Assembly (NCBI GenBank): GCA_020632555.1
Contig: JACKFI010000007.1
Location: forward strand, 528-64,527
Source: Candidatus Omnitrophota bacterium
GTDB lineage: Bacteria; Omnitrophota; Gorgyraeia; Zapsychrales; JANLHA01
DNA: 64,000 bases
Direction of reading: 5' to 3'
The notes under the pieces are model-generated. The model ran no database searches. It was not told the origin of the DNA and saw nothing but the letters and a program-made list of their open reading frames with translations. The position numbers and the translations under genes were made by a program. Position 1 is the stretch's first letter. Each line of letters begins with the position of its first letter. Shown piece after piece: positions 20,124 to 47,092 of the stretch.

Positions 20124-20127
20124 ATCG

Positions 20128-21090: not shown

Positions 21091-21096
21091 TTCTTT

Positions 21097-25024: not shown

Positions 25025-25035
25025 AAAGGTATGGA

Positions 25036-25950: not shown

Positions 25951-25978
25951 CGCCAAAGTTTGTTGGTGAGGTTATTTT

Positions 25979-26635: not shown

Positions 26636-26647
26636 TGGAGAAATCAT

Positions 26648-27865
26648 ATGTTGTTTCCCGGGAAAACGATGGATCGTCAGTTAAGCAAGAGTCCAAAAAC
26701 AGTATTTTTTTGTAAAAAATGTGTTGTCTCAAATCAAAGACCGCGGATTACTTTTAATGAACAAGGCATTTGCAGTGCTTGTCAATACGCGCATATTAAA
26801 CATAACGTTATTGATTGGGATAGTCGGGAGAAAATGCTTATTGAGTTGCTGGATCGTTTTCGTTCTCAAGACGGCAGTTATGATTGCGTGGTTCCCGGCA
26901 GTGGCGGCAAAGACAGCAGTTATGTTGCCCATCAATTAAAATACAAATATGGCATGCACCCTTTGACCGTGACGTGGGCGCCGTTTTTGTATACGGATGT
27001 GGGTTGGCAAAATTATATTACTTTTAAAGATCATGGTTTCGATAATTTATTATGTTTTCCCGACGGGATAGTTCACCGGAAGCTGGCCCGGCTTGCCTTT
27101 GAACTTTTGGGGGATGCGTGGGAACCTTTTGCTTACGGTCAAAAAGCTTATGCGTTTCATATGGCCTGCAAGTTTAAGATTCCTTTGATTTTTTATGGAG
27201 AAAGTGGAGAAATTGAATATGGCGGTTCGACAAAAAATATGAATAGCCCGCATGAAACTGTTCAAGATTGGAAAGAATTTTATTACAAAGGTTCCGGGAT
27301 TGATGAACTTACCCAGCATGGTTTGAGTGCCGGAATATTTACGCAAGATGAGATTAAAGAAAATTCTTTTATGCTTTATCGGCCCCCTGCGCCGCGGGAA
27401 TTGCAGGAGGTGAATCCGCAAATGCATTGGTTTTCATTTTATAAAAAATGGGTGCCGCAAGAAAATTATTATTATGCTGTCGAGCATACAGGTCTTCAGG
27501 CTAATGCGGACGGGCGTTCAGAGGGCACATATTCTAAGTATGCCAGCTTGGATGATAAAACCGATGGTTTTCATTTTTATTTGGCATATATCAAATTTGG
27601 CATTGCGCGGGCGACTTCTGATGCGGCGCATGAAATCCGTGATGGACATTTGACCAGAGAAGAAGGGATGGCGTTGGTTAAACGTTACGATGGCGAATTT
27701 CCCAAGAAGTACTATCAGGAATTTTTGGATTATTTGGGTATTACGGACCAGGATTTTTGGGAAATTATTAATTTTTATCGTGCTATGGCTCCTCAGGTCT
27801 GGAAGCAAGTTAATGGAGAATGGAAATTGCGGCACACCGTTAATAAAAGCGGAGTGGATGATTGA
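26648..27865 (+). CDS. N-acetyl-sugar amidotransferase (WbuX/PseA-like PP-loop ATPase)
   Basis: CKKCVVSNQRPRITFNEQGICSACQY zinc-ribbon-like start; PP-loop VPGSGGKDSS. Confidence 0.8.
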   Translation: MLFPGKTMDRQLSKSPKTVFFCKKCVVSNQRPRITFNEQGICSACQYAHIKHNVIDWDSREKMLIELLDRFRSQDGSYDCVVPGSGGKDSSYVAHQLKYKYGMHPLTVTWAPFLYTDVGWQNYITFKDHGFDNLLCFPDGIVHRKLARLAFELLGDAWEPFAYGQKAYAFHMACKFKIPLIFYGESGEIEYGGSTKNMNSPHETVQDWKEFYYKGSGIDELTQHGLSAGIFTQDEIKENSFMLYRPPAPRELQEVNPQMHWFSFYKKWVPQENYYYAVEHTGLQANADGRSEGTYSKYASLDDKTDGFHFYLAYIKFGIARATSDAAHEIRDGHLTREEGMALVKRYDGEFPKKYYQEFLDYLGITDQDFWEIINFYRAMAPQVWKQVNGEWKLRHTVNKSGVDD

Positions 27866-27869
27866 TCGA

Positions 27870-28811
27870 ATGAAAAAATTAAAGATTGTTATTTTTGGCT
27901 TAGGCTCGATTGGACAAAGGCATGTTGAAATTCTGCGTAAGCATTTTAAACATGAGCTTTATGCTTTTCGATCTGGGGGGGCTTGTGGCAATGTGTTTGG
28001 AATTCCTGAATTGACCACATGGTACATGGTTGACCAAATTAAACCGCAGGTGGCTTTTATTACCAATCCAACGTCAGAACATTTACATGTGGCCTTGGAA
28101 TGCGCACGGCGGGGGATGAATCTTTTTATTGAAAAACCTTTGTCAGATTCTTTAACGGGAATACAAGCGTTGATAACATTGTGTGACAAAAACAAACTCA
28201 CCGCGTATGTGGCCTATTGTTTACGCTTTCATCCGGTGATTGAGAAAATCAAGAGTTTGTTGAAAGGTCAAAAAGTTGTTCATGCTCGGGTTGTTTGTTC
28301 GTCGATGTTGCATCAGTGGCGAGCTGGCAAGGATTCCAGGAAAAGTTATTCGGCTTATCGGGCAATGGGTGGGGGAGTGATTTTGGATCTTTCACATGAA
28401 TTTGATTATATTCGTTTTTTATTGGGAGAAATCAAGAGCATTGCTGGAGTCAAAGGCCGTATGGGGCAAGTAACGGTTGACAGCGAGGATTTCGCGGATG
28501 TTTTGGTGACTTTAGAAAACGGCATTGTAGTCAATTGCCATTTGAATTTTGCCAGCTGGGATACAGAGCGCGTTATCCAAATTGATTTAAAAGATGGATT
28601 TATTAAAGGGGATTTGATCCAGAATACTGTTGTTTATCAGAAGAATAATAAACTTCGTCAGTTTAAATTTCCCGTCGACCGCAATCATTATTTGAAAAAA
28701 CAAACACAGTATTTCTTTAAGAATTTGAATCATCCGGCATTGATGAATAATCTTAAGCAAGCGCAAGTGCTTTTGAAACCAATCTTGGAGTTTCGAAATG
28801 GCCGCGGATAA
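27870..28811 (+). CDS. Gfo/Idh/MocA-family oxidoreductase (PtmF-like)
   Basis: KIVIFGLGSIGQRH, FIEKPLS. The track ORF (27690) was trimmed to the ATG at 27870, just after the upstream stop. Confidence 0.75.
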   Translation: MKKLKIVIFGLGSIGQRHVEILRKHFKHELYAFRSGGACGNVFGIPELTTWYMVDQIKPQVAFITNPTSEHLHVALECARRGMNLFIEKPLSDSLTGIQALITLCDKNKLTAYVAYCLRFHPVIEKIKSLLKGQKVVHARVVCSSMLHQWRAGKDSRKSYSAYRAMGGGVILDLSHEFDYIRFLLGEIKSIAGVKGRMGQVTVDSEDFADVLVTLENGIVVNCHLNFASWDTERVIQIDLKDGFIKGDLIQNTVVYQKNNKLRQFKFPVDRNHYLKKQTQYFFKNLNHPALMNNLKQAQVLLKPILEFRNGRG

Positions 28812-29517
28812 AATTTTATTAACAGTTTGTGCGCGGGGTGGTTCTAAAGGTGTTAAAAATAAGAATATCCGTTTGCTTTGTGATGAGCCTTTGATTGCGC
28901 ACACGCTAAAGCAGGCCAAAAGCTGGGGAAAAGCAGATAAGATTATATGTTCGACCGATTCAGCGGACATTGCTCAGATAGCGCAGCAGTATGGTGCGGC
29001 TGTTCCTTTTATTCGTCCGGATCAACTGGCGACAGATACAATGGGCAAGTTGGCGGTTTTACAACATGCTTTAAAAACGGTGGAAGAAAAGGACAAAATG
29101 CAGTATACGACCGTCGTGGATTTGGATGTGACGTCGCCGATTCGGCAAGTCAGTGATATTGAGGGAGCGTATCAATTGTTTTTGCAACATCAGGCGGATT
29201 CTGTTGTTAGTGCTACCAAAGCTCGTCGGAATCCTTATTTTAATATGCTTGAACTGCAGGCTGATGGTTTCGTAAAGTTGGTCAAAATGCCGTCTGTGCC
29301 GTTTTTACGGCGGCAGGATGCGCCGGTGATTTATGATATGAATGCTTCGATTTATGTGTACAAGCGTGAATTTATTTTAAATCCAGCGACGAAAACATGT
29401 TTATCGGAGAAAACTTTAGCTTGGGAGATGGGAGAATGGTCTGCTTTTGACATTGATTCGGAGGTTGATTTTCAACTCATTGAACTTTTAGTGAGCAAGG
29501 GGGTTGTTAAGTTATGA
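28798..29517 (+). CDS. Acylneuraminate (nonulosonate) cytidylyltransferase, NeuA/LegF family
   Basis: LLTVCARGGSKGVKNKNIRLLCDEPLIAHT, DVTSPIR. Confidence 0.85.
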   Translation: MAADKILLTVCARGGSKGVKNKNIRLLCDEPLIAHTLKQAKSWGKADKIICSTDSADIAQIAQQYGAAVPFIRPDQLATDTMGKLAVLQHALKTVEEKDKMQYTTVVDLDVTSPIRQVSDIEGAYQLFLQHQADSVVSATKARRNPYFNMLELQADGFVKLVKMPSVPFLRRQDAPVIYDMNASIYVYKREFILNPATKTCLSEKTLAWEMGEWSAFDIDSEVDFQLIELLVSKGVVKL

Positions 29518-30305
29518 CAGATTATTTAAAGAAATTTGTTTTAAAGGGTAAAAAAGCTGTTGTCGCCGGCGGTGCGGGTTTGATTGGTCGGGAAGTTGTG
29601 ATAGCTTTGGCGCAGGCTGGCGCTGATGTGGTGATTGCGGATACTAATATTACTGCTGGGAAGAAATTGGTAAAGGGATTGGTTCGTTCAAAAGGTAAAG
29701 TGACCTTTGTCACATTTGATATTTCGCAAATGGATGATATGAAAGGTCATGTTGCCGCTGTCGTGAAGAATTTAAAAGGAATTGATGTTTGGGTTAATTG
29801 CGCTTATCCACGAACGGCGGACTGGGGTGTTTTACCAGAACAGGTTTCGGCACAATCCTGGCGGCAAAATGTCGACGATCAGTTGAGCGCGACCGCTTTG
29901 TGTTGTACCACGGTTGCTGATCATATGAAGAAAAAAGGCGGCACGATTATTAATTTAGGTTCGATTTATGGTATCGGTGGTGGAAAGTTTGATATTTACA
30001 ATGGCACAGCGGTTAAACCGGTGCCGATTATTTATTCAGTTGTTAAAGGTGGCATTGTGAATTTGAGCCGCTATTTGGCGTCGTATTATGGCTGTTATAA
30101 TATTCGTGTGAATACGGTTTGTCCCGGCGGTGTTGCCGATGGGCAAGATCCAAAGTTTGTTAAGCAATATGCTGGGCAAACGCCTTTAGGCCGCATGGCG
30201 CGTTCTGAAGAAATTGCGTCGACAGTTTTGTTTTTGGCGTCTGATGCTGCTTCATATATCAGCGGAGCGACCGTGATGGTTGATGGCGGGTGGACTGCGG
30301 TTTAG
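29514..30305 (+). CDS. Short-chain dehydrogenase/reductase (PtmA-like)
   Basis: VVAGGAGLIGREV (TGxxxGxG-like), NCAY, YSVVKGG (YxxxK), PGGV. Confidence 0.85.
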   Translation: MTDYLKKFVLKGKKAVVAGGAGLIGREVVIALAQAGADVVIADTNITAGKKLVKGLVRSKGKVTFVTFDISQMDDMKGHVAAVVKNLKGIDVWVNCAYPRTADWGVLPEQVSAQSWRQNVDDQLSATALCCTTVADHMKKKGGTIINLGSIYGIGGGKFDIYNGTAVKPVPIIYSVVKGGIVNLSRYLASYYGCYNIRVNTVCPGGVADGQDPKFVKQYAGQTPLGRMARSEEIASTVLFLASDAASYISGATVMVDGGWTAV

Positions 30306-30315
30306 AGAAAATTTT

Positions 30316-31506
30316 ATGAAAGCAAAAGATTTGAAAACCGCTCAGCTAAATAGTTTTATTCCTTTAAGTGTTCCGGACATTTCTGGCAATGAATGGAAGT
30401 ATGTCAAAGAATGCCTCGATACCGGTTGGGTTTCTTCGGCGGGACCATTTGTTAGAAAGTTTGAACAATGTTCTGCCGATTATATCGGACGCAAATATGC
30501 GGTGGCTTGCAGCAGTGGAACAGCTGCACTGCATACAGCTCTTTTGGTTTTGGGTATACAGCCTGATGAGGAAGTGATTGTTCCCGATTTGACTTTTGTC
30601 GCGCCGGCTTTTGCGGTGCGCTATATCGGGGCTTGGCCGTTGTTTATGGATGTGGATGAAAAGTATTTTCAGCTGGATCCGCAAAAACTGAAAGATTTTT
30701 TATCGAAACAATGTTCTTTTAAGCGTGGACAATGCATTAATCGTAAAACAAAACGCCGAATCCGCGCGATTTTGCCAGTGCATTTGCTGGGTCATCCTGT
30801 TGAGATGGATCCGATTCTAGATTTAGCGAAAAAGTATGGATTAAAGATTATTGAGGATGTGGCGGAAAGCTTGGGGGCTGAGTATAAAAGAAAGAAAGCC
30901 GGCGCATTTGGGGATATTGCGGTGCTGAGTTTTAATGGCAATAAAATTATAACCTGCGGCGGAGGCGGCATGTTGTTGACAGATTCGAAGAAGTTTGCAC
31001 AAAAAGCGAGTTATTTAACAACTCAAGCCAAAGATCATCCGATTGAATTTGTTCATAACCATATCGGATACAATTATCGATTAAATAATCTTCAGGCGGC
31101 TATTGGACTGGCACAGTTTGAGCAGTTGGCCAATTATCTGAAGAAAAAGAATAACATTGCGAATGATTACGCGGATTCTTTAAAGTCTGTTCAAGGATTA
31201 TCTTTGCCGCAACAGGCTTCATGGGCAAAATCAATTTGGTGGTTATATACGATTTTAGTGGATCGCAAAGAATATGGCATAAACTCACGATCTTTGATGA
31301 AAGTTTTAGAATCATATAATATTCAAGCGCGACCGTTTTGGCACCCTTTGCATAGTCTTAAGGCTTTTAAAGGTTGTGATGCCTATAAAATTGAAAAATC
31401 GTTGCAGTTATATCAAAGTGGGTTAAGTTTGCCATCGTCGGTGGGATTGACCAAAGCGCAACAAGCTAAAGTGATTCAGGTTCTTCAGGATAATGTAAAA
31501 ACTTAA
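30316..31506 (+). CDS. DegT/DnrJ/EryC1-family PLP-dependent sugar aminotransferase (LegC/PglE-like)
   Basis: CSSGTAALHTALL, VPDLTFVA, SFNGNKIITCGGGG (PLP lysine region). Confidence 0.85.
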   Translation: MKAKDLKTAQLNSFIPLSVPDISGNEWKYVKECLDTGWVSSAGPFVRKFEQCSADYIGRKYAVACSSGTAALHTALLVLGIQPDEEVIVPDLTFVAPAFAVRYIGAWPLFMDVDEKYFQLDPQKLKDFLSKQCSFKRGQCINRKTKRRIRAILPVHLLGHPVEMDPILDLAKKYGLKIIEDVAESLGAEYKRKKAGAFGDIAVLSFNGNKIITCGGGGMLLTDSKKFAQKASYLTTQAKDHPIEFVHNHIGYNYRLNNLQAAIGLAQFEQLANYLKKKNNIANDYADSLKSVQGLSLPQQASWAKSIWWLYTILVDRKEYGINSRSLMKVLESYNIQARPFWHPLHSLKAFKGCDAYKIEKSLQLYQSGLSLPSSVGLTKAQQAKVIQVLQDNVKT

Positions 31507-31519: not shown

Positions 31520-31801
31520 ATGTTCTCACATTTTGTTTTTGATTTTTGGGCAGGCTGGGGTTTTTTTGCGCAGTTTGTATTTATGATGAGTTTTGTGGTG
31601 CAGTGGTATAAGTCGGAAAAATTAAAACAAAGTCATTTGCCCAATGAATTCTGGTATTTGCGATTGGCGGCATCTGCCATGTTGCTGGTTTATGTGATTA
31701 AAAAGCAGGATTTGGTTTTTTTTGTTGGTGTTATTTTGCAATCGGCGATTTATGTGCGCAATATTGTTTTAATAAAACGCGGGGAGGAAAGAAATGCGTA
31801 G
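31520..31801 (+). CDS. Small membrane protein with lipid-A-disaccharide-synthase N-terminal-like (LAB_N) domain
   Basis: 93 aa with 3 TM segments. GFFAQFVFMMSFVVQWYKSEKLKQSHLPNEFWYLRL matches my memory of the LAB_N pattern that accompanies GtrB-like GT2 genes. Confidence 0.55.
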   Translation: MFSHFVFDFWAGWGFFAQFVFMMSFVVQWYKSEKLKQSHLPNEFWYLRLAASAMLLVYVIKKQDLVFFVGVILQSAIYVRNIVLIKRGEERNA

Positions 31802-32744
31802 TTTAATTTCTATTGTTGTCCCAGTTTATAATGAGAAGGATAGTCTTGTTTTATTGGTGGATCAGATCAGCAAAGTGATGGCTGCTCGGGCCAAAGAATC
31901 TTTCGAGATTATTTTTATTGATGATGGCAGTACAGATCAGTCTTGGGACGTTATTCAAAATCTTGCGGCTCAACATGCGAAGTATGTTCGAGCTATTCGC
32001 TTTCGAAAAAACTTTGGTAAGTCGCAAGCATTATCAGTCGGTTTTCAATTAGCGCAAGGCGACCCGATTATTTCGATGGATGCGGATTTGCAGGATGACC
32101 CTCAAGAGATTCCCCTTTTTCTCGATAAAATCAATGACGGTGCTGATCTTGTTTCGGGCTGGAAAGTGAATCGTCAGGATCCCTTGTCTAAAACTTTGCC
32201 GTCAAAAGTTTTTAACGCGGTTGTTCAATTGATGTCGGGCGTCAAGCTGCATGATTTTAATTGTGGCTTTAAAGCGTATCGTAAGGAGGTTCTCAGGCAT
32301 ATTAAAATCTATGGAGAGCTTCATCGTTTTATTCCCGTGTTGGCTCATGGCTATGGTTTTAAAATCGCGGAAGTGGGTGTTCGGCATAATCCTCGTCAGT
32401 TTGGCTATTCAAAATATGGTTTAGAACGTTATGCTCGTGGTTTTTTAGATTTGTTAACGGTAATTATTACGACGCGTTTTATCAAAAGGCCATCACATCT
32501 TTTTGGGGGATTTGGAATTATTGCGGGATTGATTGGTTTTAGCATTTTGTTTTATTTGAGTGTTCATTGGTTGATGGGTACACATATTGGAGCCCGGCCG
32601 TTATTTTTTCTAGGGATTATGTTGAGCATTATGTCGATTCAAATGATTTCTTTGGGTTTGATTGCCGAATTGTTTCTTTACTATGCGAAGTCAAATGAGA
32701 ATGAAGATTTGATTCAACAAAAAATAAATATTGTTTTAAATTAA
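31794..32744 (+). CDS. Polyprenyl-phosphate glycosyltransferase (GT2; GtrB/ArnC/DPM1-like)
   Basis: ISIVVPVYNEKDSL, FIDDGSTDQS, MDADLQDDP, plus two C-terminal TM helices. Confidence 0.85.
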   Translation: MRSLISIVVPVYNEKDSLVLLVDQISKVMAARAKESFEIIFIDDGSTDQSWDVIQNLAAQHAKYVRAIRFRKNFGKSQALSVGFQLAQGDPIISMDADLQDDPQEIPLFLDKINDGADLVSGWKVNRQDPLSKTLPSKVFNAVVQLMSGVKLHDFNCGFKAYRKEVLRHIKIYGELHRFIPVLAHGYGFKIAEVGVRHNPRQFGYSKYGLERYARGFLDLLTVIITTRFIKRPSHLFGGFGIIAGLIGFSILFYLSVHWLMGTHIGARPLFFLGIMLSIMSIQMISLGLIAELFLYYAKSNENEDLIQQKINIVLN

Positions 32745-32749
32745 AGCTT

Positions 32750-34117
32750 ATGGAATTTCAAAGAATTCTCTCTCAGCGGAAAAGTGTTCGAAGTTTTAGG
32801 GATGAGCCTGTAACTCAAAAGGATATTTTGACAATTATTCAAGCTGGCTTAACAGCGCCGTCACCATGCAATCAGCAGTTGTGGCGATTTATTGTACTTG
32901 ATGACTCAAAAGTTAAGGATCGTTTGATTTCAGAAGCTTATTCGTCAACGATAATCCGTCGGGCGGCAAGTGTGGTTATTGTTATGTATGATGGTTGGAA
33001 TTATAAAGAGGCTATCCAATCAGGGGCAATGGCAATTATGAATATGCTCAATTGTAGTTGGGAGTTGCAGATTGGTTCGTGTTGCATTAATAGTTTTGGT
33101 AATGCAAAGAAAATTAAGGATATCCTTAAGATTCCAGAGAACTATGTGATTGTTGCTTTTGTAATTCTCGGTCATTCGGATGAATTGAAAAACTTGGATG
33201 TTCCCTTGGTTGACCGGCGACCGGTTCAGGAGGTGGTCAGTTATAATATGTATCAGGCTCAGGGGGATTATGTCAAAAGCTATAATCCTCAGATTTGGAA
33301 AAGGCAAAGTCTTGATGATTATCAAAAGTATTTTTGCCGCAAGACGTTTCTTGGTAAACAAATGGATTTGGTTGCGGAACAAGAACTTCAGGTGATTAAA
33401 GCACAGCTGGAAAACTTAAATGGCGATATTCTTGATATTTTTTCTTATGATGGTTCGTATTTAAAGTTTTTCCCTAAGCAGAAAATATATTCTTTGAATC
33501 TTAATGAGATTACTGGGCGGTATGCTTTGAGTGCTTTGCCTTTAGAGCCGCAGGATAAAGATTATATTAAAAGTGTGACGTGGGAGATGCTCGGTAAGGA
33601 TGATTTTGATCTTCGTTTGGTTGCTCAGGTGACAATGATTATGAAAGCTGAGCGAATATCGCAGGATATATTAGGTGAGTTGTTGGATGTTCTTGGTAAG
33701 AAGCTTCAGCCGGGGACAAAGTTGACTATTATTGCTCGAAAAAAGAATTTTTTCCTTAATATATTTTTGTTTTGTTTACGGTTGGCGTTTGGGGATGATG
33801 TTCGCAAAACTGGAATCTTTGCTTTCTGGGGACCTTTTTCTCCTATAGATATTCATCAAGTGTCTCGAATTTTTAAAGGGAAAGGCTGGCAGCAAATTGA
33901 GGAAAAACAATATTTCTTTTTGCCAGCTTTTTTTCAACAGATTTTGCAAATGGTGTTTCAATATTATAAAAGCGGAAAAACAAGCTATATTCATCGCACT
34001 GTACACCAGAATTATATAACGCGAAGTTATGATTGGCTTTTACAGAGGCAGGGATTCAAATTAACTCGTCATGGGTCATTAGCGGTTCTAAAATTTCGTC
34101 TTAAAAATATCTCATGA
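32750..34117 (+). CDS. Nitroreductase-domain protein fused to a C-terminal methyltransferase-like domain of about 280 aa with a degenerate motif I
   Basis: N-terminus RKSVRSFRDEPV...APSPCNQQLWRFIVL (nitroreductase fold). C-terminus ILDIFSYDGSY ... LQPGTKLTII (class I MTase-like but lacking GxGxG). Confidence 0.6.
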   Translation: MEFQRILSQRKSVRSFRDEPVTQKDILTIIQAGLTAPSPCNQQLWRFIVLDDSKVKDRLISEAYSSTIIRRAASVVIVMYDGWNYKEAIQSGAMAIMNMLNCSWELQIGSCCINSFGNAKKIKDILKIPENYVIVAFVILGHSDELKNLDVPLVDRRPVQEVVSYNMYQAQGDYVKSYNPQIWKRQSLDDYQKYFCRKTFLGKQMDLVAEQELQVIKAQLENLNGDILDIFSYDGSYLKFFPKQKIYSLNLNEITGRYALSALPLEPQDKDYIKSVTWEMLGKDDFDLRLVAQVTMIMKAERISQDILGELLDVLGKKLQPGTKLTIIARKKNFFLNIFLFCLRLAFGDDVRKTGIFAFWGPFSPIDIHQVSRIFKGKGWQQIEEKQYFFLPAFFQQILQMVFQYYKSGKTSYIHRTVHQNYITRSYDWLLQRQGFKLTRHGSLAVLKFRLKNIS

Positions 34118-35706
34118 AAAATACAATTTACTCGAATGTTATTCTTCCTAATATTCCTCGAATATTAAGTCAGATTAATACCAATATTGGTTCATCGACC
34201 TTTGGGTGTTGTGAGCGTTATCATTGGCATAATAGTGTGACCGCAGCCCCTAATGCGCGTTTTCAAGAAGCCGTTTTAACTTTGGCGCTTTTTTATAAAC
34301 AGGGGCCAGTTGAATACAAAGATAATCCCTTACTGTTATCTTTGGTTAATGCCATTATCGGATTTTGGATTAAAATTCAAGAGCCAGATGGGTCCTTTAA
34401 TGAGTGGTATGTTCATGAAGGCAGTTATGTGGCAACGGCTTTTTCTTCGTATGCAATTTCGGAAACAGTTTTATTGTTGGGCAAAGAGCAGGTTACGAAT
34501 GTTGAGCATGTTCTTGCAGCGTTGGTTAAAGCAAGTTCTTGGCTTGGCCAGCATAGTCAAAAGGCTGTTTGTAATCAACAGTCTGGTGCTTTGTTAGCGA
34601 TTCATAATACTTATATGTTGACGGCAGAAGATGCTTTAAAAGTTATTGCTCAAGATTATGAGCAGCTCATTGCTTCATGTCAAACAACGGAAGGATGGTT
34701 TTTGGAATATGGTGGCCCAGATATTGGTTATTTATCATTAACTATTGATTATTTGGCTAAGTATTATCACAAAACAAAATCTGATCTTATCGCGAGAGTG
34801 ATCGACAAGGCTTTGGGTTTTATTGCGAACTTTATTCACCAGGACGGCACAGTCGGTGGGGCTTACACAAGCCGGGAAACGGAATTCTTTATTCCGCATG
34901 GGGTTGAATTGTTGGCCGCAAGCAATGAGAATGCTGCTTTCATTGCTGGTGTGATACGTCGGAACTTAGCTGGCGGCAAGAGTATTACGCCATCCTCTCT
35001 GGATGATCGATACCTGATGTACAATGGCTACACATTTTTGCAGGCAGGGTTAGATGGACTTGAGGATTTACCAGAGGTCATTATGAAGCGACCACGTTTT
35101 ATGCATTATCCATTAGCTGGGATTGCGATTTGGCGATGGGATCAGTTTGAGTTTATTGCTAATTTAAATAAAGTGGGGACATTTGTCGCGTTTGTTGGTG
35201 ATAAAAAGATTTGTGATAGTGGAATCTTAATTGAAGGTCAGCCGAACCTTTTTAGTGGGTATTTGCAAAAGCACGTGAAGATTTTACATATGAATGAACA
35301 AGGTTTTGAGGTGCAAGGGCATTTTTGCCTTTTACGGGAAAATTCAATGTCGCCATTAAAGCAAATTTTTCTAAATGGTGTGCAATTGATTATTGGGAGA
35401 CTTGGTGCATTACAAGTTTTTGTCAAAGAATACTTGCGCAAAAAGTTGATTACAGGGCATAAATACTCGACCGTCACTTTGAAAAGAGCAGTTGTTTTGA
35501 CGGATGAGGGTATAGAGATTGATGATCGGATTGAAGGATTAAAAACATTTGAACGAATTGTTGTCGGTGCGAGACTTTCCTATATTTATGTTCCGTCGTC
35601 GCGTCTTTTTCAGAGAGAAAATCTTAAAGAACATGGGCCTGAGTTTATTAATATGGATCAGCTTCATAATGATGCCGTTGTGGTTAATAGACAGTTTTAT
35701 AAGTAG
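34114..35706 (+). CDS. Hypothetical 530-aa protein (possible alpha/alpha-toroid plus beta-sandwich polysaccharide-modifying enzyme)
   Basis: ORF is coupled to its neighbour by an ATGA overlap. Recurrent DG-aromatic motifs (EPDGSFNEWY, TTEGWFLEYGG, HQDGTVGGAY) in a helical N-terminal half, with a beta-rich C-terminal half. The fold guess is weak. Confidence 0.35.
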   Translation: MKNTIYSNVILPNIPRILSQINTNIGSSTFGCCERYHWHNSVTAAPNARFQEAVLTLALFYKQGPVEYKDNPLLLSLVNAIIGFWIKIQEPDGSFNEWYVHEGSYVATAFSSYAISETVLLLGKEQVTNVEHVLAALVKASSWLGQHSQKAVCNQQSGALLAIHNTYMLTAEDALKVIAQDYEQLIASCQTTEGWFLEYGGPDIGYLSLTIDYLAKYYHKTKSDLIARVIDKALGFIANFIHQDGTVGGAYTSRETEFFIPHGVELLAASNENAAFIAGVIRRNLAGGKSITPSSLDDRYLMYNGYTFLQAGLDGLEDLPEVIMKRPRFMHYPLAGIAIWRWDQFEFIANLNKVGTFVAFVGDKKICDSGILIEGQPNLFSGYLQKHVKILHMNEQGFEVQGHFCLLRENSMSPLKQIFLNGVQLIIGRLGALQVFVKEYLRKKLITGHKYSTVTLKRAVVLTDEGIEIDDRIEGLKTFERIVVGARLSYIYVPSSRLFQRENLKEHGPEFINMDQLHNDAVVVNRQFYK

Positions 35707-35739
35707 CATTAGATATCATGAAATCGGGAAAGGACAGTA

Positions 35740-37401
35740 ATGAGTAGAGAAAAAGACATGTATGGTAAAGACAAGAGATTTTATTTTTGTTTATTAGCTG
35801 GAATCATTGTTTTATTTTTATGTGTTTGGTTTTTTAGTGCCAGAAGTTTTTCTGGATGGGGAGATGAAATAACCCATTTTGGAACAGCTAAGGGGTTAGC
35901 TCAAACGGGGCAATATAAAATGTGGTCTTTTGATCAAGGTCAAATCAGCCCGATCAATTATACGCGGGGGCTTGTGATTACTTATTTGGCCAGCCTATCT
36001 TATAAAATGGCTGGTCTTTCTCGTCTGGCTTTTCGTGTGATACCATTAGTTTTCGTATTGTTGACATTTTTAACGTTGGTTTTGTATATTCGTTTGCGGC
36101 ATTATGCGTCGTGGAAAGCGCTGGCTTACGCGGCTGTTTTCTTTTTTGGGCAGGTTTTTGTTTTTGAACAATCAGTGTATGTTCGAATTTATGCGCCATT
36201 GGGATGGTTGATGGTTTGCGGCTTGATTCTTTATTGGGAGGCATATTTACAATTTCAAAAACGTAAGGTTCTTCTGGGGTGCGTGCTGCTTGGGGGCAGT
36301 ACTGGAACATTGATTTTACCAACCATTGATCATTGGCAGATGGAACATTTAGCAATTTATGCTTTGGCGATTGTTTTAAGCTTTCCTTTGATTACAGGAA
36401 TGATGACAAAAATTGACCAGAAGTTAAGTGTTAAGGTCAAAATTCTTCTTGGAATATGTTTAGTTTTCTTTGCTTTATTTGTAGCTTTGATTTTGGATTA
36501 TGCTATGGGCTATTGGGTCATTGATGCCAAACGACGTTTGATGGGACGTAGTTTTGTGACCTATTGGGATAATCTCGCCGGTATGATTCGTTATGCTTTG
36601 GCTTTGAATGTTTGTTTCATAGGCTTGGGTTGGGTGATGCAAGATCTAAGAAAAAATAAAACTTTGGATTTTTATTCATGGTCATTCTTGACGGGTATTG
36701 TATCTGGTATTTTGATTGGACTTTTTAATCCGCATAATCATATTTTTTATTCGCGATTTTTTTATGTTTCTGTTCTTTTGGTTGCGATTGGTTTCCCGCA
36801 AATGTTGCTGCGGATGAATTTGTCTAAAAACAGCTTGCGGTGGATTTTCACTGTTTTTTTAGTTTTCAATGTTGGATTGTTTGTTATCAATGTGTATTGT
36901 GAACGAAGCAATATTCGTATTCCGATTGCTTGGCTTGAGAAAAACTTAAAGCAAAATGAGCTGTTGATTGTTTTTACGACTCACTTGGAATTGCACGGCG
37001 GCGAGTCTTTGATCAAACGCGCGTATGCCATTTCTCCAAGTCAAGATCCGTCTAATACTCAACAATTAATGAATCGTATTGAATCAAGCACAGCTGAGGA
37101 CATTTATTATCTTTATACCGACGAGTATGAATTTCGCGATCAGCTGTATTTGTGGACGATGGGCGATGATCGCAGTCCTCCTAATGATTTGTTTCGGTAT
37201 CTCAAAGAGAAAATTCCTTCCCAAACGGTGATGCCGGGTTTAAGGACGTGTGGTCTCGTTAAATTTAAAAAAAGTGATTTGATTATATCGTTGCAGAAGT
37301 TGTTACAAGATGGGTATCCACCGCAATTTAAAGGGGTAGAGAAGAGGATATTAAAGAAAATTCTTAAGCCTTGGTTAAAAGAAAAACTTTCCACAAGTTA
37401 A
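35740..37401 (+). CDS. GT-C-type polytopic glycosyltransferase (ArnT/PMT_2-like)
   Basis: About 12 TM helices. The first loop carries GWGDEITHFG (DE motif as in ArnT/PMT-type enzymes). Soluble C-terminal domain of about 150 aa. Located downstream of the GtrB-like GT2. Confidence 0.6.
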   Translation: MSREKDMYGKDKRFYFCLLAGIIVLFLCVWFFSARSFSGWGDEITHFGTAKGLAQTGQYKMWSFDQGQISPINYTRGLVITYLASLSYKMAGLSRLAFRVIPLVFVLLTFLTLVLYIRLRHYASWKALAYAAVFFFGQVFVFEQSVYVRIYAPLGWLMVCGLILYWEAYLQFQKRKVLLGCVLLGGSTGTLILPTIDHWQMEHLAIYALAIVLSFPLITGMMTKIDQKLSVKVKILLGICLVFFALFVALILDYAMGYWVIDAKRRLMGRSFVTYWDNLAGMIRYALALNVCFIGLGWVMQDLRKNKTLDFYSWSFLTGIVSGILIGLFNPHNHIFYSRFFYVSVLLVAIGFPQMLLRMNLSKNSLRWIFTVFLVFNVGLFVINVYCERSNIRIPIAWLEKNLKQNELLIVFTTHLELHGGESLIKRAYAISPSQDPSNTQQLMNRIESSTAEDIYYLYTDEYEFRDQLYLWTMGDDRSPPNDLFRYLKEKIPSQTVMPGLRTCGLVKFKKSDLIISLQKLLQDGYPPQFKGVEKRILKKILKPWLKEKLSTS

Positions 37402-37429
37402 TGTCATATTTGCCAATCCCAAAGTCCAT

Positions 37430-39535
37430 ATGAAGACAGAATCATCTGGATTAGAAAATTGTGTTTTATTCATCGAGTGGTTGGACATTCGAAGTTTGTT
37501 TTTTGATATTATTCCTTGTTTTATGAAGCAGAGGGAAAAAGTATCAAAGACTGTTTTTATTTTTGATGCTTCGTCAATAGCTTTATCAGTTGCTAGATGG
37601 TTAAGTTTTTTGTTGAAATGGAAAATTAAAATAGTTCGTTTTGAGTTGGTAGACATTCAGGATCAGAATCATTTTTCTCTGCGTCTGCGTTTGGATTATT
37701 TTGATTTGGGGATCATTCAGGACAAGATTGTTGCCAGTCGAGTTTTTCAAAATTATATTCACCATTTTAAGAATGAACAATTTCTCGGCAGCTATCTTGC
37801 CAAAGATTTGCTTGCCTTTGATCACACCAGTCTTAATCGCCACCGTCAAATTCTTCACGCTTTAACATTGATTAATGTTAGTCGTTGGTATTTGAAAGGA
37901 AAAGAAGAGCGTATCAAATTGTTTTTGAGACAAAGAGATTGGGCTGAGGTTTTGAGGGAATACGCGTGTGATTTTGATGTGGAATTAATTTTTGTCGCAG
38001 CTTTTCAAAACACGGCGTTTACTTTAAAGAAAGTTCTGCGCCAATTTTTTGCCAAATATATTCATTGGAGTATTTGGGGTTTAAGAAATTTGCAGTTCTT
38101 TTTGAGAAAGACGTCCGACGCCAACAAGTTGTCTACAAAAAGAAAATTCTTGGGAGCATCCAGGTATCAATTGGCAGTTGAGTATTATGGTCATTTGAAC
38201 TTGGACAGAATGGATACTTTTTCTGATCTGTTCTTTTTGCAGCCATCAGTGTTAAAGGGAGAAGATATCACTCTTCTTTTTAGTTTGCCGCAGGATCCTT
38301 TTGATGAGAATAAATGGCAACAATTGCAGAAACAGCATATTTCTGCCTTGGTGCGTTTTCCGCGGGCAAGCTGTTTACCTCAGGACAAGGCTCCTCTTCA
38401 TGATCCGTGGTCGGTTCCCGCAGCTTGGCATTTGAGTGGTCGTTTACCTGATAGAGAGAAAGAATCTGATGATTTTGAAATTCTCCGTAATAAAACGATA
38501 GAATATAATCGCTACTTTGGCTATTGGAAAGATCTTTTTCAAAAGGGCAATATTCGGTTATATACGCATTGGTATAAATATGATGCTGGGCATATTCCAT
38601 TGACGGATGCTTTAAGAAGTTTGGGCGGCATAACAACTTTTTATCAGCGGGCGCTGGAAACACAGTCGATGAGAGCGTTGGCTGTTGTTGCAGATGTCGT
38701 ATTTTGTTACAGTCCAAATAATTTTGCTGTAGAAAAGGAAAATCATTCGCAGATTGCGCATCAAGTCGTGACGGGATTTTTGGGAGATTTTCGTTTCCCC
38801 TATTTAAAGGAAAAGGCTGTTGAGATTGCACGACCACTGCGGCAAAAAGGTGTAAAGTGCATTATCGCGTTCTTGGATGAGAATACACTAGACGACGGGC
38901 GCTGGTTTACGGGGCATGCGTTCACACAAAAGAATTATTCTTATTTAATTGAAAAGGTTTTGCAAGATTCGCACTATGGTATTATTTTTAAACCTAAAAG
39001 TCCGGGGAATTTAATGCGTCGGCTTGGTCCGGTTGCGGGAATGATGGAAGATTTGCAAAGATGTGGCCGGGCTGTTATTTTGGGTGGTGGCTCTTTGCAA
39101 GGCATGTATCCGCCGGTTCTCGCGTCATTGGCGGCAGATTTGACCATTCATGAATGTTTGAGTGCGGGTTCTGCTGGAGTAGAGGCGGCATTGGCGGGCG
39201 CGTCAACGTTATTTCTCGATACCGAAGGATGGCCGGTGAGTCCATTTTATCAGGGAGGTCTGGGAAAAGTTGTTTTTCAAGATTGGAATTCCATGTGGCA
39301 GGCGTGTGTGGATTTCTTTGAAAAACCTCAGGCTAAAGCTAGTTTAGGAAATTGTGAACCATTCTTGGCCGCTGTAGATCCTTTTCGCGACGGGCAGGCT
39401 GCCCAGCGTATGGGCAATTATTTAAAGTGGCTGATTGATGGACTGAATTGTGGTTTACCTCGTGAAACCGTCCTAGCTGATGCCAATGAGCGATATGCGC
39501 GTCTTTGGGGAAAAGATAAAATTCATTCAATATAA
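37430..39535 (+). CDS. Hypothetical 701-aa protein; C-terminal Rossmann-like transferase-type region
   Basis: Long ORF with no TM segments. The C-terminus KCIIAFLDEN...GIIFKPKSPG...AGSAGVEAALAGASTLFLD is reminiscent of GT-B/capsule-synthesis proteins. No firm family. Confidence 0.35.
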   Translation: MKTESSGLENCVLFIEWLDIRSLFFDIIPCFMKQREKVSKTVFIFDASSIALSVARWLSFLLKWKIKIVRFELVDIQDQNHFSLRLRLDYFDLGIIQDKIVASRVFQNYIHHFKNEQFLGSYLAKDLLAFDHTSLNRHRQILHALTLINVSRWYLKGKEERIKLFLRQRDWAEVLREYACDFDVELIFVAAFQNTAFTLKKVLRQFFAKYIHWSIWGLRNLQFFLRKTSDANKLSTKRKFLGASRYQLAVEYYGHLNLDRMDTFSDLFFLQPSVLKGEDITLLFSLPQDPFDENKWQQLQKQHISALVRFPRASCLPQDKAPLHDPWSVPAAWHLSGRLPDREKESDDFEILRNKTIEYNRYFGYWKDLFQKGNIRLYTHWYKYDAGHIPLTDALRSLGGITTFYQRALETQSMRALAVVADVVFCYSPNNFAVEKENHSQIAHQVVTGFLGDFRFPYLKEKAVEIARPLRQKGVKCIIAFLDENTLDDGRWFTGHAFTQKNYSYLIEKVLQDSHYGIIFKPKSPGNLMRRLGPVAGMMEDLQRCGRAVILGGGSLQGMYPPVLASLAADLTIHECLSAGSAGVEAALAGASTLFLDTEGWPVSPFYQGGLGKVVFQDWNSMWQACVDFFEKPQAKASLGNCEPFLAAVDPFRDGQAAQRMGNYLKWLIDGLNCGLPRETVLADANERYARLWGKDKIHSI

Positions 39536-39547: not shown

Positions 39548-40564
39548 ATGCCTAAGAAAACAAAATATTTAGTAACCGGCGGGGCGGGATTTATTGGCAG
39601 TAATTTTGTGCATTATCTTTATCGCCATCATCGCAATATTCAGGTGTGTGTTTTAGATAAGCTGGGATATTCGGCGAGTTTAGAAAATTTGAAGCAATAT
39701 GCTGGTCGCAGCGATTTTGAATTTATCAAAGGAAATATTTGTGATGCTAAAGTTGTCGCCAAAGCCATGGCTGGCGCGCATGTTGTGGTGAATTTCGCGG
39801 CCGAAGTGGCGGTGGATCGTTCAATTGATGATCCGCAATCTTTTTTGAAAACTGATATTTTTGGGGTGTACACTTTATTGGAAGAAGCTCGCAAACAAAA
39901 AAACCTAAAGAAGTTTATTCAAATTTCAACCGATGAAGTTTATGGACAAATTCTAAAGGGGAGTTTTCGCGAGAATTCGGAAACTTTGCCACGTAATCCT
40001 TATGCTGCTTCTAAATTAGGCGGTGAGCGAATTGCGTATAGCTTTTTTAAAACTTATGATTTGCCGGTTGTGATTACGCGCGCCGCCAACAATTATGGTC
40101 CGTCGGCTTATCCAGAAAAAGTTATTCCATTATTTATTACCAATTTAGTCGACAGCTTGCCGGTGCCGGTTTATGGTCAGGGGCGACAGATGCGTGATTG
40201 GCTGTATGTTGATGATCATTGCAGCGCGATTGATTTATTGGTCAGCAAGGGGGAAAATGGTGAAGTTTACAATGTCGGCGCCGGTGAGGAATGCACTAAT
40301 ATTGATTTGACCAAGCGAATCTTAAAATTGATGGGCAAAGATCAGTCGTTCATTAATTTTGTTGCTGATCGACCCGGGCATGATTTTCGTTACAGTTTGA
40401 GTTGTGCGAAGTTAAAAAAATTGGGTTGGCAACCGCAATACAATTTGACTGACGGGTTAAAGGCAACAGTGTTGTGGTATCAAGATAATGAAGCTTGGTG
40501 GCGGCCCTTAAAGAAAAACTTGGACCAACGTTTTGTGAAAGGATTTTGGGGAGGTAGAAAATGA
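39548..40564 (+). CDS. rfbB: dTDP-glucose 4,6-dehydratase
   Basis: YLVTGGAGFIGSNFV, ISTDEVYG, PYAASKLGGE, RPGHDFRY. Confidence 0.9.
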   Translation: MPKKTKYLVTGGAGFIGSNFVHYLYRHHRNIQVCVLDKLGYSASLENLKQYAGRSDFEFIKGNICDAKVVAKAMAGAHVVVNFAAEVAVDRSIDDPQSFLKTDIFGVYTLLEEARKQKNLKKFIQISTDEVYGQILKGSFRENSETLPRNPYAASKLGGERIAYSFFKTYDLPVVITRAANNYGPSAYPEKVIPLFITNLVDSLPVPVYGQGRQMRDWLYVDDHCSAIDLLVSKGENGEVYNVGAGEECTNIDLTKRILKLMGKDQSFINFVADRPGHDFRYSLSCAKLKKLGWQPQYNLTDGLKATVLWYQDNEAWWRPLKKNLDQRFVKGFWGGRK

Positions 40565-41307
40565 AAGGTGTTTTATTAGCCGGAGGTAGTGCTCAGCGTT
40601 TGCGGCCGTTGACCAAGGTGACCAATAAGCATCTTTTGCCGGTTTATAAAAAGCCAATGATTTATTATCCTTTAGAAACTTTGCTTAAGGCGGGCATTAA
40701 AGATATTTTGATTGTCACCGGTGGAGAACACGTGGGCGATTTTTTCCAACTGTTGGGTTCCGGCAAAGAGTGGGGCGCACATTTTAGTTATGAAATTCAG
40801 GAAGGCAATACCGGCACCGGCGCTGCTTTATTATTGGCCGAGGAGTTTGTTCGGGATCAATCATTTATGGTTATTTTGGGGGATAATGTGGTCAGTGAGG
40901 ATATCGGGAAGTTTGTGCAGAATTTTAAGAGCGAGCAAGAGAAGTTTAAAGCAAAGATTCTCATTGCCAAAGTTAAGGATCCGGAAAAATATGGTGTCGT
41001 TGAGTTTGTTGGTAAACGAATTAAAAATATCATCGAAAAACCTCGTCATCCGGTTTCTTCGTATGTTAATACCGGCTTGTGGATGTTTTTGCCGGAAGTA
41101 TTTAGCCTGTTAAAAGATTTGAAAAAAAGTCCTCGGGGTGAGTATGAAGTGACGGATGTTTTGGCGCATTATGCGCAAAGGGAAGTTTTGTCTTATTCAA
41201 TTCTCAAAGGTCCTTGGACAGATGCGGGGAGTTTTGAGTCGCTTTATAATGCAACTGTTTTGATGAAAAAGTTTGAAGATCAGCAGATAAAGAAAAATAA
41301 AACGTGA
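40561..41307 (+). CDS. Short-form sugar-1-phosphate nucleotidyl(thymidylyl)transferase (RmlA-like)
   Basis: MKGVLLAGGSAQRLRPLTKVTNKHLLPVYKKPMIYYPL, ILGDNV; 248 aa; ATGA overlap with rfbB. Confidence 0.8.
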   Translation: MKGVLLAGGSAQRLRPLTKVTNKHLLPVYKKPMIYYPLETLLKAGIKDILIVTGGEHVGDFFQLLGSGKEWGAHFSYEIQEGNTGTGAALLLAEEFVRDQSFMVILGDNVVSEDIGKFVQNFKSEQEKFKAKILIAKVKDPEKYGVVEFVGKRIKNIIEKPRHPVSSYVNTGLWMFLPEVFSLLKDLKKSPRGEYEVTDVLAHYAQREVLSYSILKGPWTDAGSFESLYNATVLMKKFEDQQIKKNKT

Positions 41308-42164
41308 ATCAGTCTGCTAAAATTCTTGTTACTGGTGCGAATGGTTTTGTCGGGCAGGCTCTTTGTCGGCGGTTGATTCATCTGGGTTATTCGGTGTTTG
41401 GTTTAGACCGAAATTCTCCGGTAATTGCGGGATTGACTCATTTTTATCAGCAGGATATCACTCAGTCTTTTACATTAAAAGAAGATTTTGACTTTGTCTT
41501 TCATCTGGCCGCGTATAATGTGACGCACGTTGGTCAACAATCTGCACACCAGTATCAAATGGTTAATGTTTTAGGCACGCAGAATGTTGTGGCCGCTGTC
41601 AAAACAGCGCATTTTGTCTTATTATCAACAACAAAAGTTTATTTGGCGCAAGGAAAAATCATTGATGAGGATGCGCCATTATTGCCTTTGCAGGAATATG
41701 AAAAAAGTAAATTAGCCGCGGAAGAGGTTTGCCGCAAAGAATTGGATAATCGCAGTTTAGTCATTCTTCGTTGTGTTAATATTGTTGGTGCAGGCCAGCC
41801 AGAGAAAGCGGTTATTCCGGTTTTGTTTAAAAAAGCCAAAGCAGGTGAAACATTAGAAATTTTTGGTCCACGATCAACGGTTTTGCAATTTTTATTTGTA
41901 GAAGATGTTGTTGACGCTTTTGTTCATTTGATTGAAAAAAACAATGTAAGTGGTGTTTACAATTTGGCGGGGTCGCAGCATATTCGTTTAGATGAATTGG
42001 CTTTTCAAATTAAAGAAATTTGTCATTCGAACAGTGAAATCCATTATAACAATGAGGATTTGGTTGAATTTTCGCAAGTGAGCAGTGCAAAAGCAGAAAA
42101 AGCATTGCATTGGCAAGCTAAAACCTCAATTCAGGAAATTTTAGCAAGTTATCAATCACCATAA
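41304..42164 (+). CDS. NAD-dependent epimerase/dehydratase-family protein (probable 4-ketoreductase)
   Basis: ILVTGANGFVGQAL, YEKSKLAAE (YxxxK). GTG start overlaps the upstream stop. Confidence 0.7.
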   Translation: MNQSAKILVTGANGFVGQALCRRLIHLGYSVFGLDRNSPVIAGLTHFYQQDITQSFTLKEDFDFVFHLAAYNVTHVGQQSAHQYQMVNVLGTQNVVAAVKTAHFVLLSTTKVYLAQGKIIDEDAPLLPLQEYEKSKLAAEEVCRKELDNRSLVILRCVNIVGAGQPEKAVIPVLFKKAKAGETLEIFGPRSTVLQFLFVEDVVDAFVHLIEKNNVSGVYNLAGSQHIRLDELAFQIKEICHSNSEIHYNNEDLVEFSQVSSAKAEKALHWQAKTSIQEILASYQSP

Positions 42165-44474: not shown

Positions 44475-44535
44475 TTTAGAAACTTCTGTGGAAAAGAATT
44501 CAGTCTAGTGATCTTTTTTATATTAAGGTTGATTT

Positions 44536-47040: not shown

Positions 47041-47092
47041 GCTTTTTTTCTTGCGGGTTTCAGAAATATTCCAAAATAAATAAAGGGTTTGT

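Follow-up and report, generated by a model that had tools for sequence, protein, structure and literature searches.

Within a 64,000-nucleotide stretch of the metagenome-assembled genome of an uncultivated Candidatus Omnitrophota bacterium (contig JACKFI010000007.1, positions 528 to 64,527; hereafter the window) lies a run of six genes encoding a LAB_N-family membrane protein, an ArnC/GtrB-like family 2 glycosyltransferase (GT2), a nitroreductase/methyltransferase-like fusion, and three proteins of 530, 553 and 701 amino acids (aa), here termed T530, P553 and P701, which are 100% identical to the hypothetical proteins H6753_03745, H6753_03750 and H6753_03755 (Table 1). An initial annotation, made from the DNA letters, had read these genes as a three-component glycosylation module interleaved with unassigned tailoring proteins, and all six open reading frames (ORFs) were verified on the plus strand where it had placed them. 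The module is tightly packed, with successive gaps of 13, -8, 5, -4, 33, 28 and 12 nucleotides (nt), ranging from -8 to +33 nt within the module. The 3′ end of LAB_N overlaps the GT2 start by 8 nt, and the ATGA overlap at 34114 (TCTCATGAAAA) was likewise confirmed.

Table 1. Features of the module and of the surrounding window
Feature	Coordinates	Strand	Evidence or content
LAB_N small membrane protein, 93 aa	31520..31801	+	Pfam LAB_N 3.2e-22, 78.9 bits against a cut-off of 26.7
ArnC/GtrB-like GT2, 316 aa	31794..32744	+	Pfam Glycos_transf_2 PF00535, 3.3e-30
Nitroreductase/methyltransferase-like fusion, 455 aa	32750..34117	+	PF00881 1.7e-22, 80.8 bits against a gathering score of 23.5
T530, 530 aa, predicted cytoplasmic (alpha/alpha)6 toroid plus beta-sandwich	34114..35706	+	AlphaFold2 and Foldseek
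P553, predicted divergent GT-C, ArnT/PMT-like, 553 aa	35740..37401	+	Hydrophobic segments and profile searches
P701, predicted soluble GT-B-fold protein, 701 aa	37430..39535	+	AlphaFold2 (pLDDT 89.2) and Foldseek
P609-family ORF, 609 aa, soluble	4355-6184	+	No Pfam match even at E 0.05
Second CMP (cytidine monophosphate)-sugar gene set	6269-12970	+	GFO, Methyltransf_23, SIS_2, TAL_FSA aldolase, HpcH/HpaI aldolase, HAD phosphatase, CTP_transf_3, 2-Hacid_dh
Legionaminic-acid-like nonulosonic acid set	~19143-31506	+	Last gene is the LegC aminotransferase
LegC-family aminotransferase	30280..31506	+	TIGR04181 1.5e-139, 465 bits against a cut-off of 420
dTDP (deoxythymidine diphosphate)-glucose 4,6-dehydratase, glucose-1-P thymidylyltransferase-like gene, short-chain dehydrogenase/reductase (SDR)	39548..42164	+	ATGA-type overlaps, translationally coupled

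The labels first given to the LAB_N protein, the GT2 and the nitroreductase were borne out by Pfam and NCBIfam. A three-sequence LAB_N profile matched only SemiSWEETs in the PDB (4qnc, E 0.01; 5uhq, E 0.08), across residues 12-76 and thus nearly the full length, and Pfam assigns Lab-N to the MtN3-like clan (PMC4499210). The GtrA, ArnE/F, GtcA and MATE flippase families are absent from the module, which has the LAB_N protein instead, and we regard this protein as a candidate translocator of a lipid-linked sugar that would work as a semiSWEET-like homodimer. For the GT2, the best NCBIfam match was ArnC (NF007986, 1.2e-55); at 188.8 bits against an equivalog cut-off of 529, the protein is a relative of ArnC and not an orthologue, and PgfS (2.7e-39) and AglJ (7.6e-22) were matched as well. 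Two or three hydrophobic segments lie at its C-terminus (239-257, 267-295), and it is predicted to be a polyprenyl-phosphate glycosyltransferase with C-terminal membrane anchors.

The fusion protein begins with a nitroreductase domain (aa 1-~180) whose PDB nitroreductase matches, down to 1.9e-12, include the ene-type enzymes CLA-ER, albonoursin synthase and FbiB, from a superfamily that holds C=C reductases and dehydrogenases. The domain is a genuine member of this superfamily and is predicted to bind flavin mononucleotide. Its C-terminal 270 aa had no Pfam match when run alone, and aligned with a methyltransferase cluster from the neighbourhood at 97% probability (hhalign, E 8.6e-11). Because motif I is degenerate (ILDIFSYDGSY), with SYDGSY in place of the glycine-rich S-adenosylmethionine (SAM) motif (E/DxGxGxG), we describe this domain as methyltransferase-like and possibly non-catalytic. 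The two halves occur as separate genes at other loci, encoding a nitroreductase of ~214 aa and a methyltransferase of ~250-290 aa.

P553 comprises ~10 hydrophobic segments followed by a soluble C-terminal domain of ~165 aa (aa ~390-553), with W40, D42 and E43 invariant directly after the first transmembrane segment (the DE motif). It had no Pfam match at E<=0.01, nor was any precomputed for 18 close relatives, and neither the single sequence nor the family profile matched NCBIfam models or PDB sequences. The family is rare, with 18 word-index matches and 35 representatives at E<=1e-30 among 1.84 billion. HMMER searches retrieved further multi-transmembrane proteins at 1e-18 to 1e-4, some of which are PMT_2 proteins (P0232, PMT_2 5.7e-8), and in a 50-sequence alignment with distant relatives E43 was invariant and D42, H46, R76, R149 and Y151 were conserved in at least 90%. 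A broadened profile matched ArnT (5ezm) at 2.8e-8 over 350 positions, with the DE motif aligned to ArnT DEGRYAE, and also PglB (1.2e-4) and TMEM260 (7e-3), all three of them GT-C enzymes. An independent hhalign comparison, with a PMT_2 cluster of related loci, aligned 360 columns at 92% probability (E 6e-7), and no significant alignment was obtained with other multi-transmembrane clusters near T530 (c24, c31, c35 and the PMT_2 half of a fusion). The initial GT-C call was thereby upheld by remote homology to ArnT and not by any single-family match: P553 is predicted to be a GT-C enzyme of divergent sequence without direct membership of Pfam PF13231, and represents a new, rare GT-C family.

The conserved core and its variable slot

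The gene order of the window recurs on three independent contigs (L001, L006 and the P0012 contig; other loci are cited by number in the same way), with T530 identities of 46-67%, and is no chance juxtaposition. LAB_N, GT2 and P553 lie directly adjacent and uninterrupted in L086, L095 and L096, and L097 and L098 have GT2 and P553 side by side. P553 adjoins a GT2 in 12 of 14 contexts, and LAB_N-GT2 adjacency was seen again in L086, L089/L094, L095, L096, L024 and L033. These arrangements support LAB_N, GT2 and P553 as a conserved core of the three-component type, as had been proposed. Since this core is uninterrupted elsewhere, leaving the slot between GT2 and P553 empty, the nitroreductase fusion and T530 are true insertions between the GT2 and GT-C genes.

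The content of the slot varies, and the slot therefore behaves like a tailoring cassette site. It holds the fusion and T530 in the window and L001, the same pair followed by two extra ORFs (one methyltransferase-like) in L006, T530 alone on the P0012 contig, T530 with a UPF0104 protein and an FrhB-like oxidoreductase in L092, and a methyltransferase with a B12-radical SAM enzyme in L089/L094. We consider it highly probable that the architecture is that of a core carrying an inserted cassette, P701 being a GT-B enzyme apart from it. Literature searches for LAB_N with a glycosyltransferase, for a nitroreductase with a GT-C enzyme and for Pfam PF25840 found no description of such a module.

Two of these loci carry further genes beside P553. 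The L092 oxidoreductase is an FrhB/FdhB-like flavin/FeS protein encoded between UPF0104 and P553 (5624-9441), where other loci carry the nitroreductase; an ArnA-like formyltransferase follows, and a second LAB_N-P553 pair occurs at 13101-14698. In L089/L094 (11747-13552), on a 917-kb metagenome contig, the flanking neighbours of the P553 homologue are a carbamoyltransferase gene (Carbam_trans_N/C) and two genes for B12-radical SAM enzymes, which suggests more variants of donor or acceptor tailoring.

The T530 family and its neighbourhoods

T530 matched no Pfam or NCBIfam model and no PDB sequence, alone or as a family profile. AlphaFold2 modelled it with high confidence (pLDDT 93.5, pTM 0.93) as a toroid (aa 1-315) joined to an antiparallel beta-sandwich (aa 329-530). 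Foldseek matched this model to polysaccharide lyase (PL) families, namely PL8 chondroitin and xanthan lyases, PL33, PL12 heparinase III, PL15/17 alginate lyases and PL21 exo-heparinase, and to human dermatan-sulfate epimerase 1 (E 5e-7 to 2e-5, probability 1.0, query-normalised TM-score 0.38-0.54). The modelled fold thus falls in the class of uronate polysaccharide lyases and C5-epimerases. Removal of a uronate's C5 proton is common to the toroid-plus-sandwich lyases and dermatan-sulfate epimerase 1. Weak sequence matches to Pec_lyase, Ulvan_lyase_N, DUF4962 and the pectate lyase model TIGR02474, the last seen in 24 of 48 family members, span only one toroid repeat of ~40-55 residues. One member bears the NCBI name 'terpene cyclase', a candidate that we rejected: squalene cyclase models matched 2 of 48 members, weakly, and the fold matches are lyases, not double-barrel cyclases.

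Across the 48 sequences 44 residues are invariant, many of them charged, with five Arg and several Tyr, Asn, Asp and Glu; they include R35, R49, N154, N165, Y199, Y206, Y213, R254, Y300, R442 and R458. The spacing of N154, Y206 and R254 may resemble the Asn...Tyr...Arg spacing of PL8 lyases. T530 has no signal peptide and no transmembrane segment, and its N-terminal helix is conserved and structured; together with the invariant residues, the missing signal peptide fits a cytoplasmic enzyme better than a scaffold. A helical hairpin in the sandwich (aa ~412-450) carries 8-13 Lys and Arg against 0-6 Asp and Glu, the rest of the protein being neutral or acidic, and this conserved, cationic and amphipathic element could serve as a peripheral membrane anchor. 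The 'DG-aromatic repeats' that had been ascribed to the protein exist as motifs, but only three [DE]G-x-aromatic occurrences were found (residues 92, 102 and 193), and they are toroid loop motifs.

The family is widespread. Relatives fall into at least 308 clusters, and among 185,579 species genomes at least 553 encode one (553 of 599 pattern matches). The bacterial hosts include Omnitrophota, groups of the candidate phyla radiation (CPR), Dictyoglomota, Sumerlaeota, Myxococcota, Acidobacteriota and Chloroflexota, and the archaeal hosts, DPANN lineages among them, include Woesearchaeota, Nanoarchaeia, Altiarchaeota, Theionarchaea, Methanosarcinales/Methanocrinis and an Asgard metagenome-assembled genome. 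No relatives were found in the phage collection.

For 84 non-redundant T530 loci, ORFs were called and clustered and the clusters labelled with Pfam. An ArnC-like GT2 (270-460 aa) lies within 2.5 kb of T530 at 60 of the 84, its gene often overlapping that of T530. LPG_synthase_TM/UPF0104, the MprF flippase-domain family, is nearby at 41 loci (fused to PMT_2 in 7 of them) and a GT-C-like protein at 35, so that one or the other accompanies T530 at 56. Nitroreductases occur at 29 loci and directly adjoin T530 in 24 of these, including L065 and L067, which have no nearby GT2; 12 of the 29 are fusions of ~455 aa. Class-I methyltransferases besides those 12 fusions were counted at 35 loci, B12-radical SAM enzymes at 15, AsnB-type amidotransferases at 10 and uridine diphosphate (UDP)-sugar dehydrogenases at 7, the last two, at 17 of 84 loci, hinting at uronic acids. 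T530 is therefore coupled family-wide to modules of GT2, putative flippase and GT-C, and the inserts are conserved beside the GT2, as their proposed function in such a module would require. Minimal modules without polymer-assembly genes also exist, as GT2-T530-(UPF0104+PMT_2) in Dictyoglomota and GT2-T530-UPF0104 in Phyllobacterium.

The Phyllobacterium example, GT2-T530-LPG_synthase_TM, is found at ORFs 7985-11537 of L093, on a megaplasmid of the cultured Phyllobacterium sp. A18/5-2 (NZ_CP104967.1, 64041-83570), the trio covering 73041-74570 and its flanks; the PLSDB gene table holds no features for this stretch. Separately, a second module recurs near T530 (L005 260-6532; L021, L024, L027, L030, L047, L048, L051 and L054), consisting of a short GT2 (~231-244 aa), a DUF2334/polysaccharide deacetylase, LPG_synthase_TM, a B12-radical SAM enzyme and PMT_2. 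It presumably resembles the hopanoid HpnI/HpnK/HpnL/HpnJ set. A context of deacetylase, glycosyltransferase and UPF0104 is noted in PMC5898192.

P701 and the surrounding glycan genes

The initial annotation had counted P701 among the tailoring enzymes, an assignment that did not hold. P701 matched no Pfam or NCBIfam model and no PDB sequence, alone or as a family profile. Foldseek matched its confidently predicted structure to UDP-GlcNAc 2-epimerases (the top matches), SPY/OGT, TagF, MurG and MGD1 (E 5e-7 to 3e-4), which places the model in the GT-B glycosyltransferase superfamily fold, no CAZy or Pfam family being assigned. P701 is a new GT-B family, for which 35 relatives were found in 5.8 billion clusters. 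A role as UDP-GlcNAc 2-epimerase was ranked below that of a glycosyltransferase: an Epimerase_2 gene is already present at the locus, and no sequence family unites P701 with the epimerases.

The contexts of P701 follow CMP-sugar synthetase pathways and, at times, lack the GT-C gene. Five contexts (the window, L001, L006, L086 and the P0012 contig) have P701 directly after P553, and three (L087, L088 and L091) have it without P553. A companion family of 546-610 aa, represented in the window by P609, is present with P701 in the window, L001, L087, L088, L089, L091 and the P0012 contig, and not in L006 or L086. Most P701 contexts also contain CTP_transf_3 with a set of SIS, aldolase and HAD genes; the corresponding set of the window (6269-12970), which was found again with P701 in L001, L087, L088 and L091, appears to encode a route, separate from that through NeuB, to an unusual CMP-activated keto-deoxy (ulosonic) acid. 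We infer that P701 is probably a Leloir-type transferase tied to CMP-ulosonic-acid pathways, both its transferase role and its donor being read from the modelled fold and these contexts, and that it probably builds or extends the acceptor glycan. The 609-aa family may be a second transferase of such pathways.

The module is embedded in a single large surface-glycan island (~783-55351). Genes for conventional assembly are present (BacA, two Wzy_C-like proteins, an ABC exporter, a Bac_transf initiating transferase, WecG/TagA, GT4 and one more GT2), as are guanosine diphosphate (GDP)-mannose dehydratase-type genes; PGK, TIM and an Opp transporter lie 3′ of the island. Upstream of the module, the nonulosonic acid set comprises NeuB, Epimerase_2 (NeuC-like), a PglD-like protein, HisF/HisH, a CBS-NTP-transferase, CTP_transf_3 (CMP-synthetase), an SDR and the LegC aminotransferase. 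Downstream lie the three dTDP-sugar genes, which may supply the donor of the GT2; TIGR01181 was matched at 4.4e-125 (417 bits, cut-off 365), Epimerase at 9e-41 and RmlA models at 2e-64, the last below their cut-off.

Several further features of the window were recorded. All substantial ORFs across 1-64000 are on the plus strand, at ~40% GC, with a strong GC skew that stays above zero in all 2-kb bins (0.13-0.27). After the module, plus-strand genes at 42294-48160 encode a 726-aa protein with one transmembrane segment and no Pfam match, an 834-aa Hsp70/MreB-like protein and a Ser/Thr protein kinase, a trio that is unusual content for a glycan island. Immediately 3′ of the HisF/HisH-like pair is a plus-strand 405-aa ORF without a Pfam match (26648-27865), kept in L001 (79% identity), L086 (49%) and L089 (26%); with that pair, it presumably resembles a WbuX/WbuY/WbuZ-type amidotransferase arrangement for acetamidino sugars. 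It shares 176 nt with the next called ORF (27690-28811), the start of which is for that reason probably miscalled.

Proposed mechanism and competing explanations

We propose that the ArnC/GtrB-like GT2 would transfer a sugar from a nucleotide donor to polyprenyl phosphate at the cytoplasmic face, that the inserted cassette of fusion protein and T530 would then remodel this sugar, that the semiSWEET-like LAB_N protein would move the lipid-linked sugar across the membrane, and that P553 would hand it to an extracytoplasmic acceptor. Remodelling would most likely involve proton abstraction beside a carboxylate, with C5 epimerisation or 4,5-elimination as the outcome and, at loci that have the flavoprotein, a flavin-dependent, ene-type reduction as the next step; it would most probably act on the lipid-linked sugar at the membrane. 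This chemistry is proposed because of the fold class of T530, its redox partner and the occasional uronate-related genes at T530 loci; throughout the scheme we infer each catalytic activity, which sugar and which acceptor are involved, and whether T530 and the nitroreductase act at the lipid or the nucleotide level. We judge the model as a whole, a three-component-type polyprenyl-phosphate module with a two-gene cassette inserted, to be evenly balanced between right and wrong, and tailoring specifically at the lipid-linked level to be somewhat less secure than that. It is more doubtful, if conceivable, that T530 founds a new class of cytoplasmic, membrane-peripheral lyase/epimerase-fold enzymes that, as a fourth component of these systems, remodel a single polyprenyl-phosphate-linked sugar by epimerising C5, or by 4,5-elimination coupled to reduction by the nitroreductase, to give an epimerised or deoxygenated sugar.

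A number of observations weigh against this model. The catalytic Tyr, His and Asn of the lyases could not be mapped onto T530, whose toroid has no invariant His in the 48 sequences. The window contains no UDP-sugar dehydrogenase, and a uronate substrate fits it poorly because the adjacent nucleotide-sugar genes are of the dTDP-6-deoxyhexose type. LAB_N proteins are not known to flip lipids, and the SemiSWEET match is weak (E 0.01). P553 matches solved GT-C structures only through the broadened profile, and the methyltransferase-like domain of the fusion has no glycine-rich SAM loop. At 24 of the 84 T530 loci no GT2 lies within 2.5 kb, several of these being truncated contigs. Finally, position in an operon cannot separate action on a lipid-linked sugar from action on a nucleotide-linked one; the cationic hairpin of T530 and the frequent overlap of its gene with that of a membrane-anchored GT2 weakly favour the lipid level.

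This last ambiguity underlies the strongest alternative, in which soluble T530, the nitroreductase and the methyltransferase-like domain would make an unusual nucleoside diphosphate sugar that the GT2 then loads, leaving the lipid-linked sugar unmodified. In keeping with it, T530 and the fusion protein lack transmembrane segments, genes for SDR, DegT and UDP-sugar dehydrogenase proteins are common at T530 loci, and the order of reactions cannot be read from the order of genes; in the Arn operon, moreover, the nucleotide-level enzymes ArnA and ArnB are encoded together with ArnC and ArnT. We nevertheless hold this alternative to be unlikely: T530 is coupled specifically to a GT2 of the polyprenyl-phosphate type, a putative flippase and a GT-C enzyme, and not to other types of glycosyltransferase, its gene often overlaps that of the GT2, its conserved hairpin suggests membrane association, and lyase-fold enzymes are not known to use nucleotide sugars as substrates.

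The module might instead assemble an oligosaccharide on a lipid monophosphate, initiated by the AglJ-like GT2, extended with CMP-ulosonic acids by P701 and the 609-aa family, flipped by LAB_N and transferred en bloc by P553 acting as an oligosaccharyltransferase or ligase. The AglJ match of the GT2, the PglB match of the broadened P553 profile, the position of P701 immediately 3′ of P553 at five loci and the co-occurrence of the P701 and P609 families with CMP-sugar synthetase genes (except that P609 is missing in L006 and L086) all speak for such a pathway. However, L087, L088 and L091 have P701 but neither P553 nor LAB_N, and two short contigs (L095 and L096) as well as L097 have LAB_N-GT2-P553 and no P701. 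ArnT, the enzyme best matched by P553 among GT-C proteins, transfers monosaccharides, and conventional assembly is provided for in the window by Wzy-like, ABC-transporter and Bac_transf initiating genes. We hold this pathway to be quite improbable. Least credible of all, and in our view very improbable, is that T530 is a true polysaccharide lyase or C5-epimerase of finished or nascent polymer that lies near GT2 genes as a by-product of large glycan islands: its fold matches (PL8, PL12, PL15, PL17, PL21, PL33 and dermatan-sulfate epimerase 1) and the weak TIGR02474 matches of half the family suit that role, but the protein has no signal peptide and a conserved, structured N-terminus, the TIGR02474 and Pfam matches cover a single toroid repeat, minimal modules of 3-4 genes lack polymer synthesis, and GT2 adjacency extends over 60 of 84 loci and many phyla, often with overlapping genes.

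Returning to remodelling of a lipid-linked sugar, auxiliary enzymes acting on lipid-linked donors are established for ArnD and for DprE1/DprE2. Like the Arn pathway, the module has a GT2 whose best NCBIfam match is ArnC, a P553 most similar to ArnT, and soluble enzymes between loading and transfer, the position held there by the deformylase ArnD. It differs in that its GT2 scores far below the ArnC equivalog cut-off, its small membrane protein is LAB_N/semiSWEET-like and not of the SMR type of ArnE/F, its inserts are the fusion and a lyase-fold protein with no deformylase, and ArnA and ArnB are absent from the module. Gtr-type systems (GtrA, GtrB and a Gtr-type GT-C; CsbB/GtcA/YfhO) likewise place a GT2 with C-terminal transmembrane helices, a small membrane protein and a GT-C enzyme side by side, whereas the window has no GtrA-family protein, a GT-C of its own rare family and two additional cytoplasmic enzymes. 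T530 shares the overall two-domain fold of the PL8, PL12, PL15, PL17, PL21 and PL33 lyases and dermatan-sulfate epimerase 1; unlike them it has no detectable sequence family membership, is predicted to be cytoplasmic where they are secreted, and partners a polyprenyl-phosphate GT2 in place of polysaccharide-utilisation genes.

Further parallels come from described three-component systems with auxiliary enzymes and from an archaeal neighbourhood. The pentofuranose systems of Citrobacter youngae O1/O2 combine PPPRS, a MATE flippase and a GT136 GT-C with an auxiliary epimerase, ORF13 (PMC11127046). As in the mycobacterial DprE1/DprE2 system, auxiliary enzymes there alter the sugar of the polyprenyl-phosphate donor before GT-C transfer; unlike the window, these systems use a phosphoribosyl-pyrophosphate-dependent donor synthase, and the families of their flippase, GT-C and tailoring enzymes all differ. 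An archaeal neighbourhood of AglD-like GT2, UPF0104 (with its MprF-like flippase domain) and a PMT/STT3-like protein is predicted to be a glycosylation module (Makarova et al. 2015, PMC5898192), the triad in which the wider T530 family also sits through its LPG_synthase_TM and fused LPG_synthase_TM+PMT_2 loci. The account of this neighbourhood in that paper mentions, in the part that treats it, neither a lyase-fold nor a nitroreductase component, and in the window LAB_N and P553 would fill the roles of UPF0104 and PMT_2. The view that the inserts are foreign to described systems was overstated, as ArnD, DprE1/E2 and ORF13 are precedents for auxiliary enzymes on lipid-linked donors.

Collectively, the initial reading is partly supported. 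The core is a known kind of system; new are the T530/nitroreductase cassette and the family-wide coupling of T530 to modules of GT2, flippase and GT-C. Because the T530 family is present in a cultured Phyllobacterium isolate, the question is experimentally approachable. Decoration of O-antigens, teichoic acids, lipid A and proteins beyond the cytoplasm generally proceeds through three-component systems, and nucleotide-sugar metabolism is regarded as the main determinant of the sugars available to them. If the proposed model is correct, a widespread accessory enzyme of lyase/epimerase fold, genomically coupled to the GT2 that loads the lipid and often accompanied by a flavoprotein, would give these systems a new chemical step, and a function would be assigned to the T530 family, whose many phyla include CPR bacteria and DPANN archaea with almost uncharacterised surfaces.

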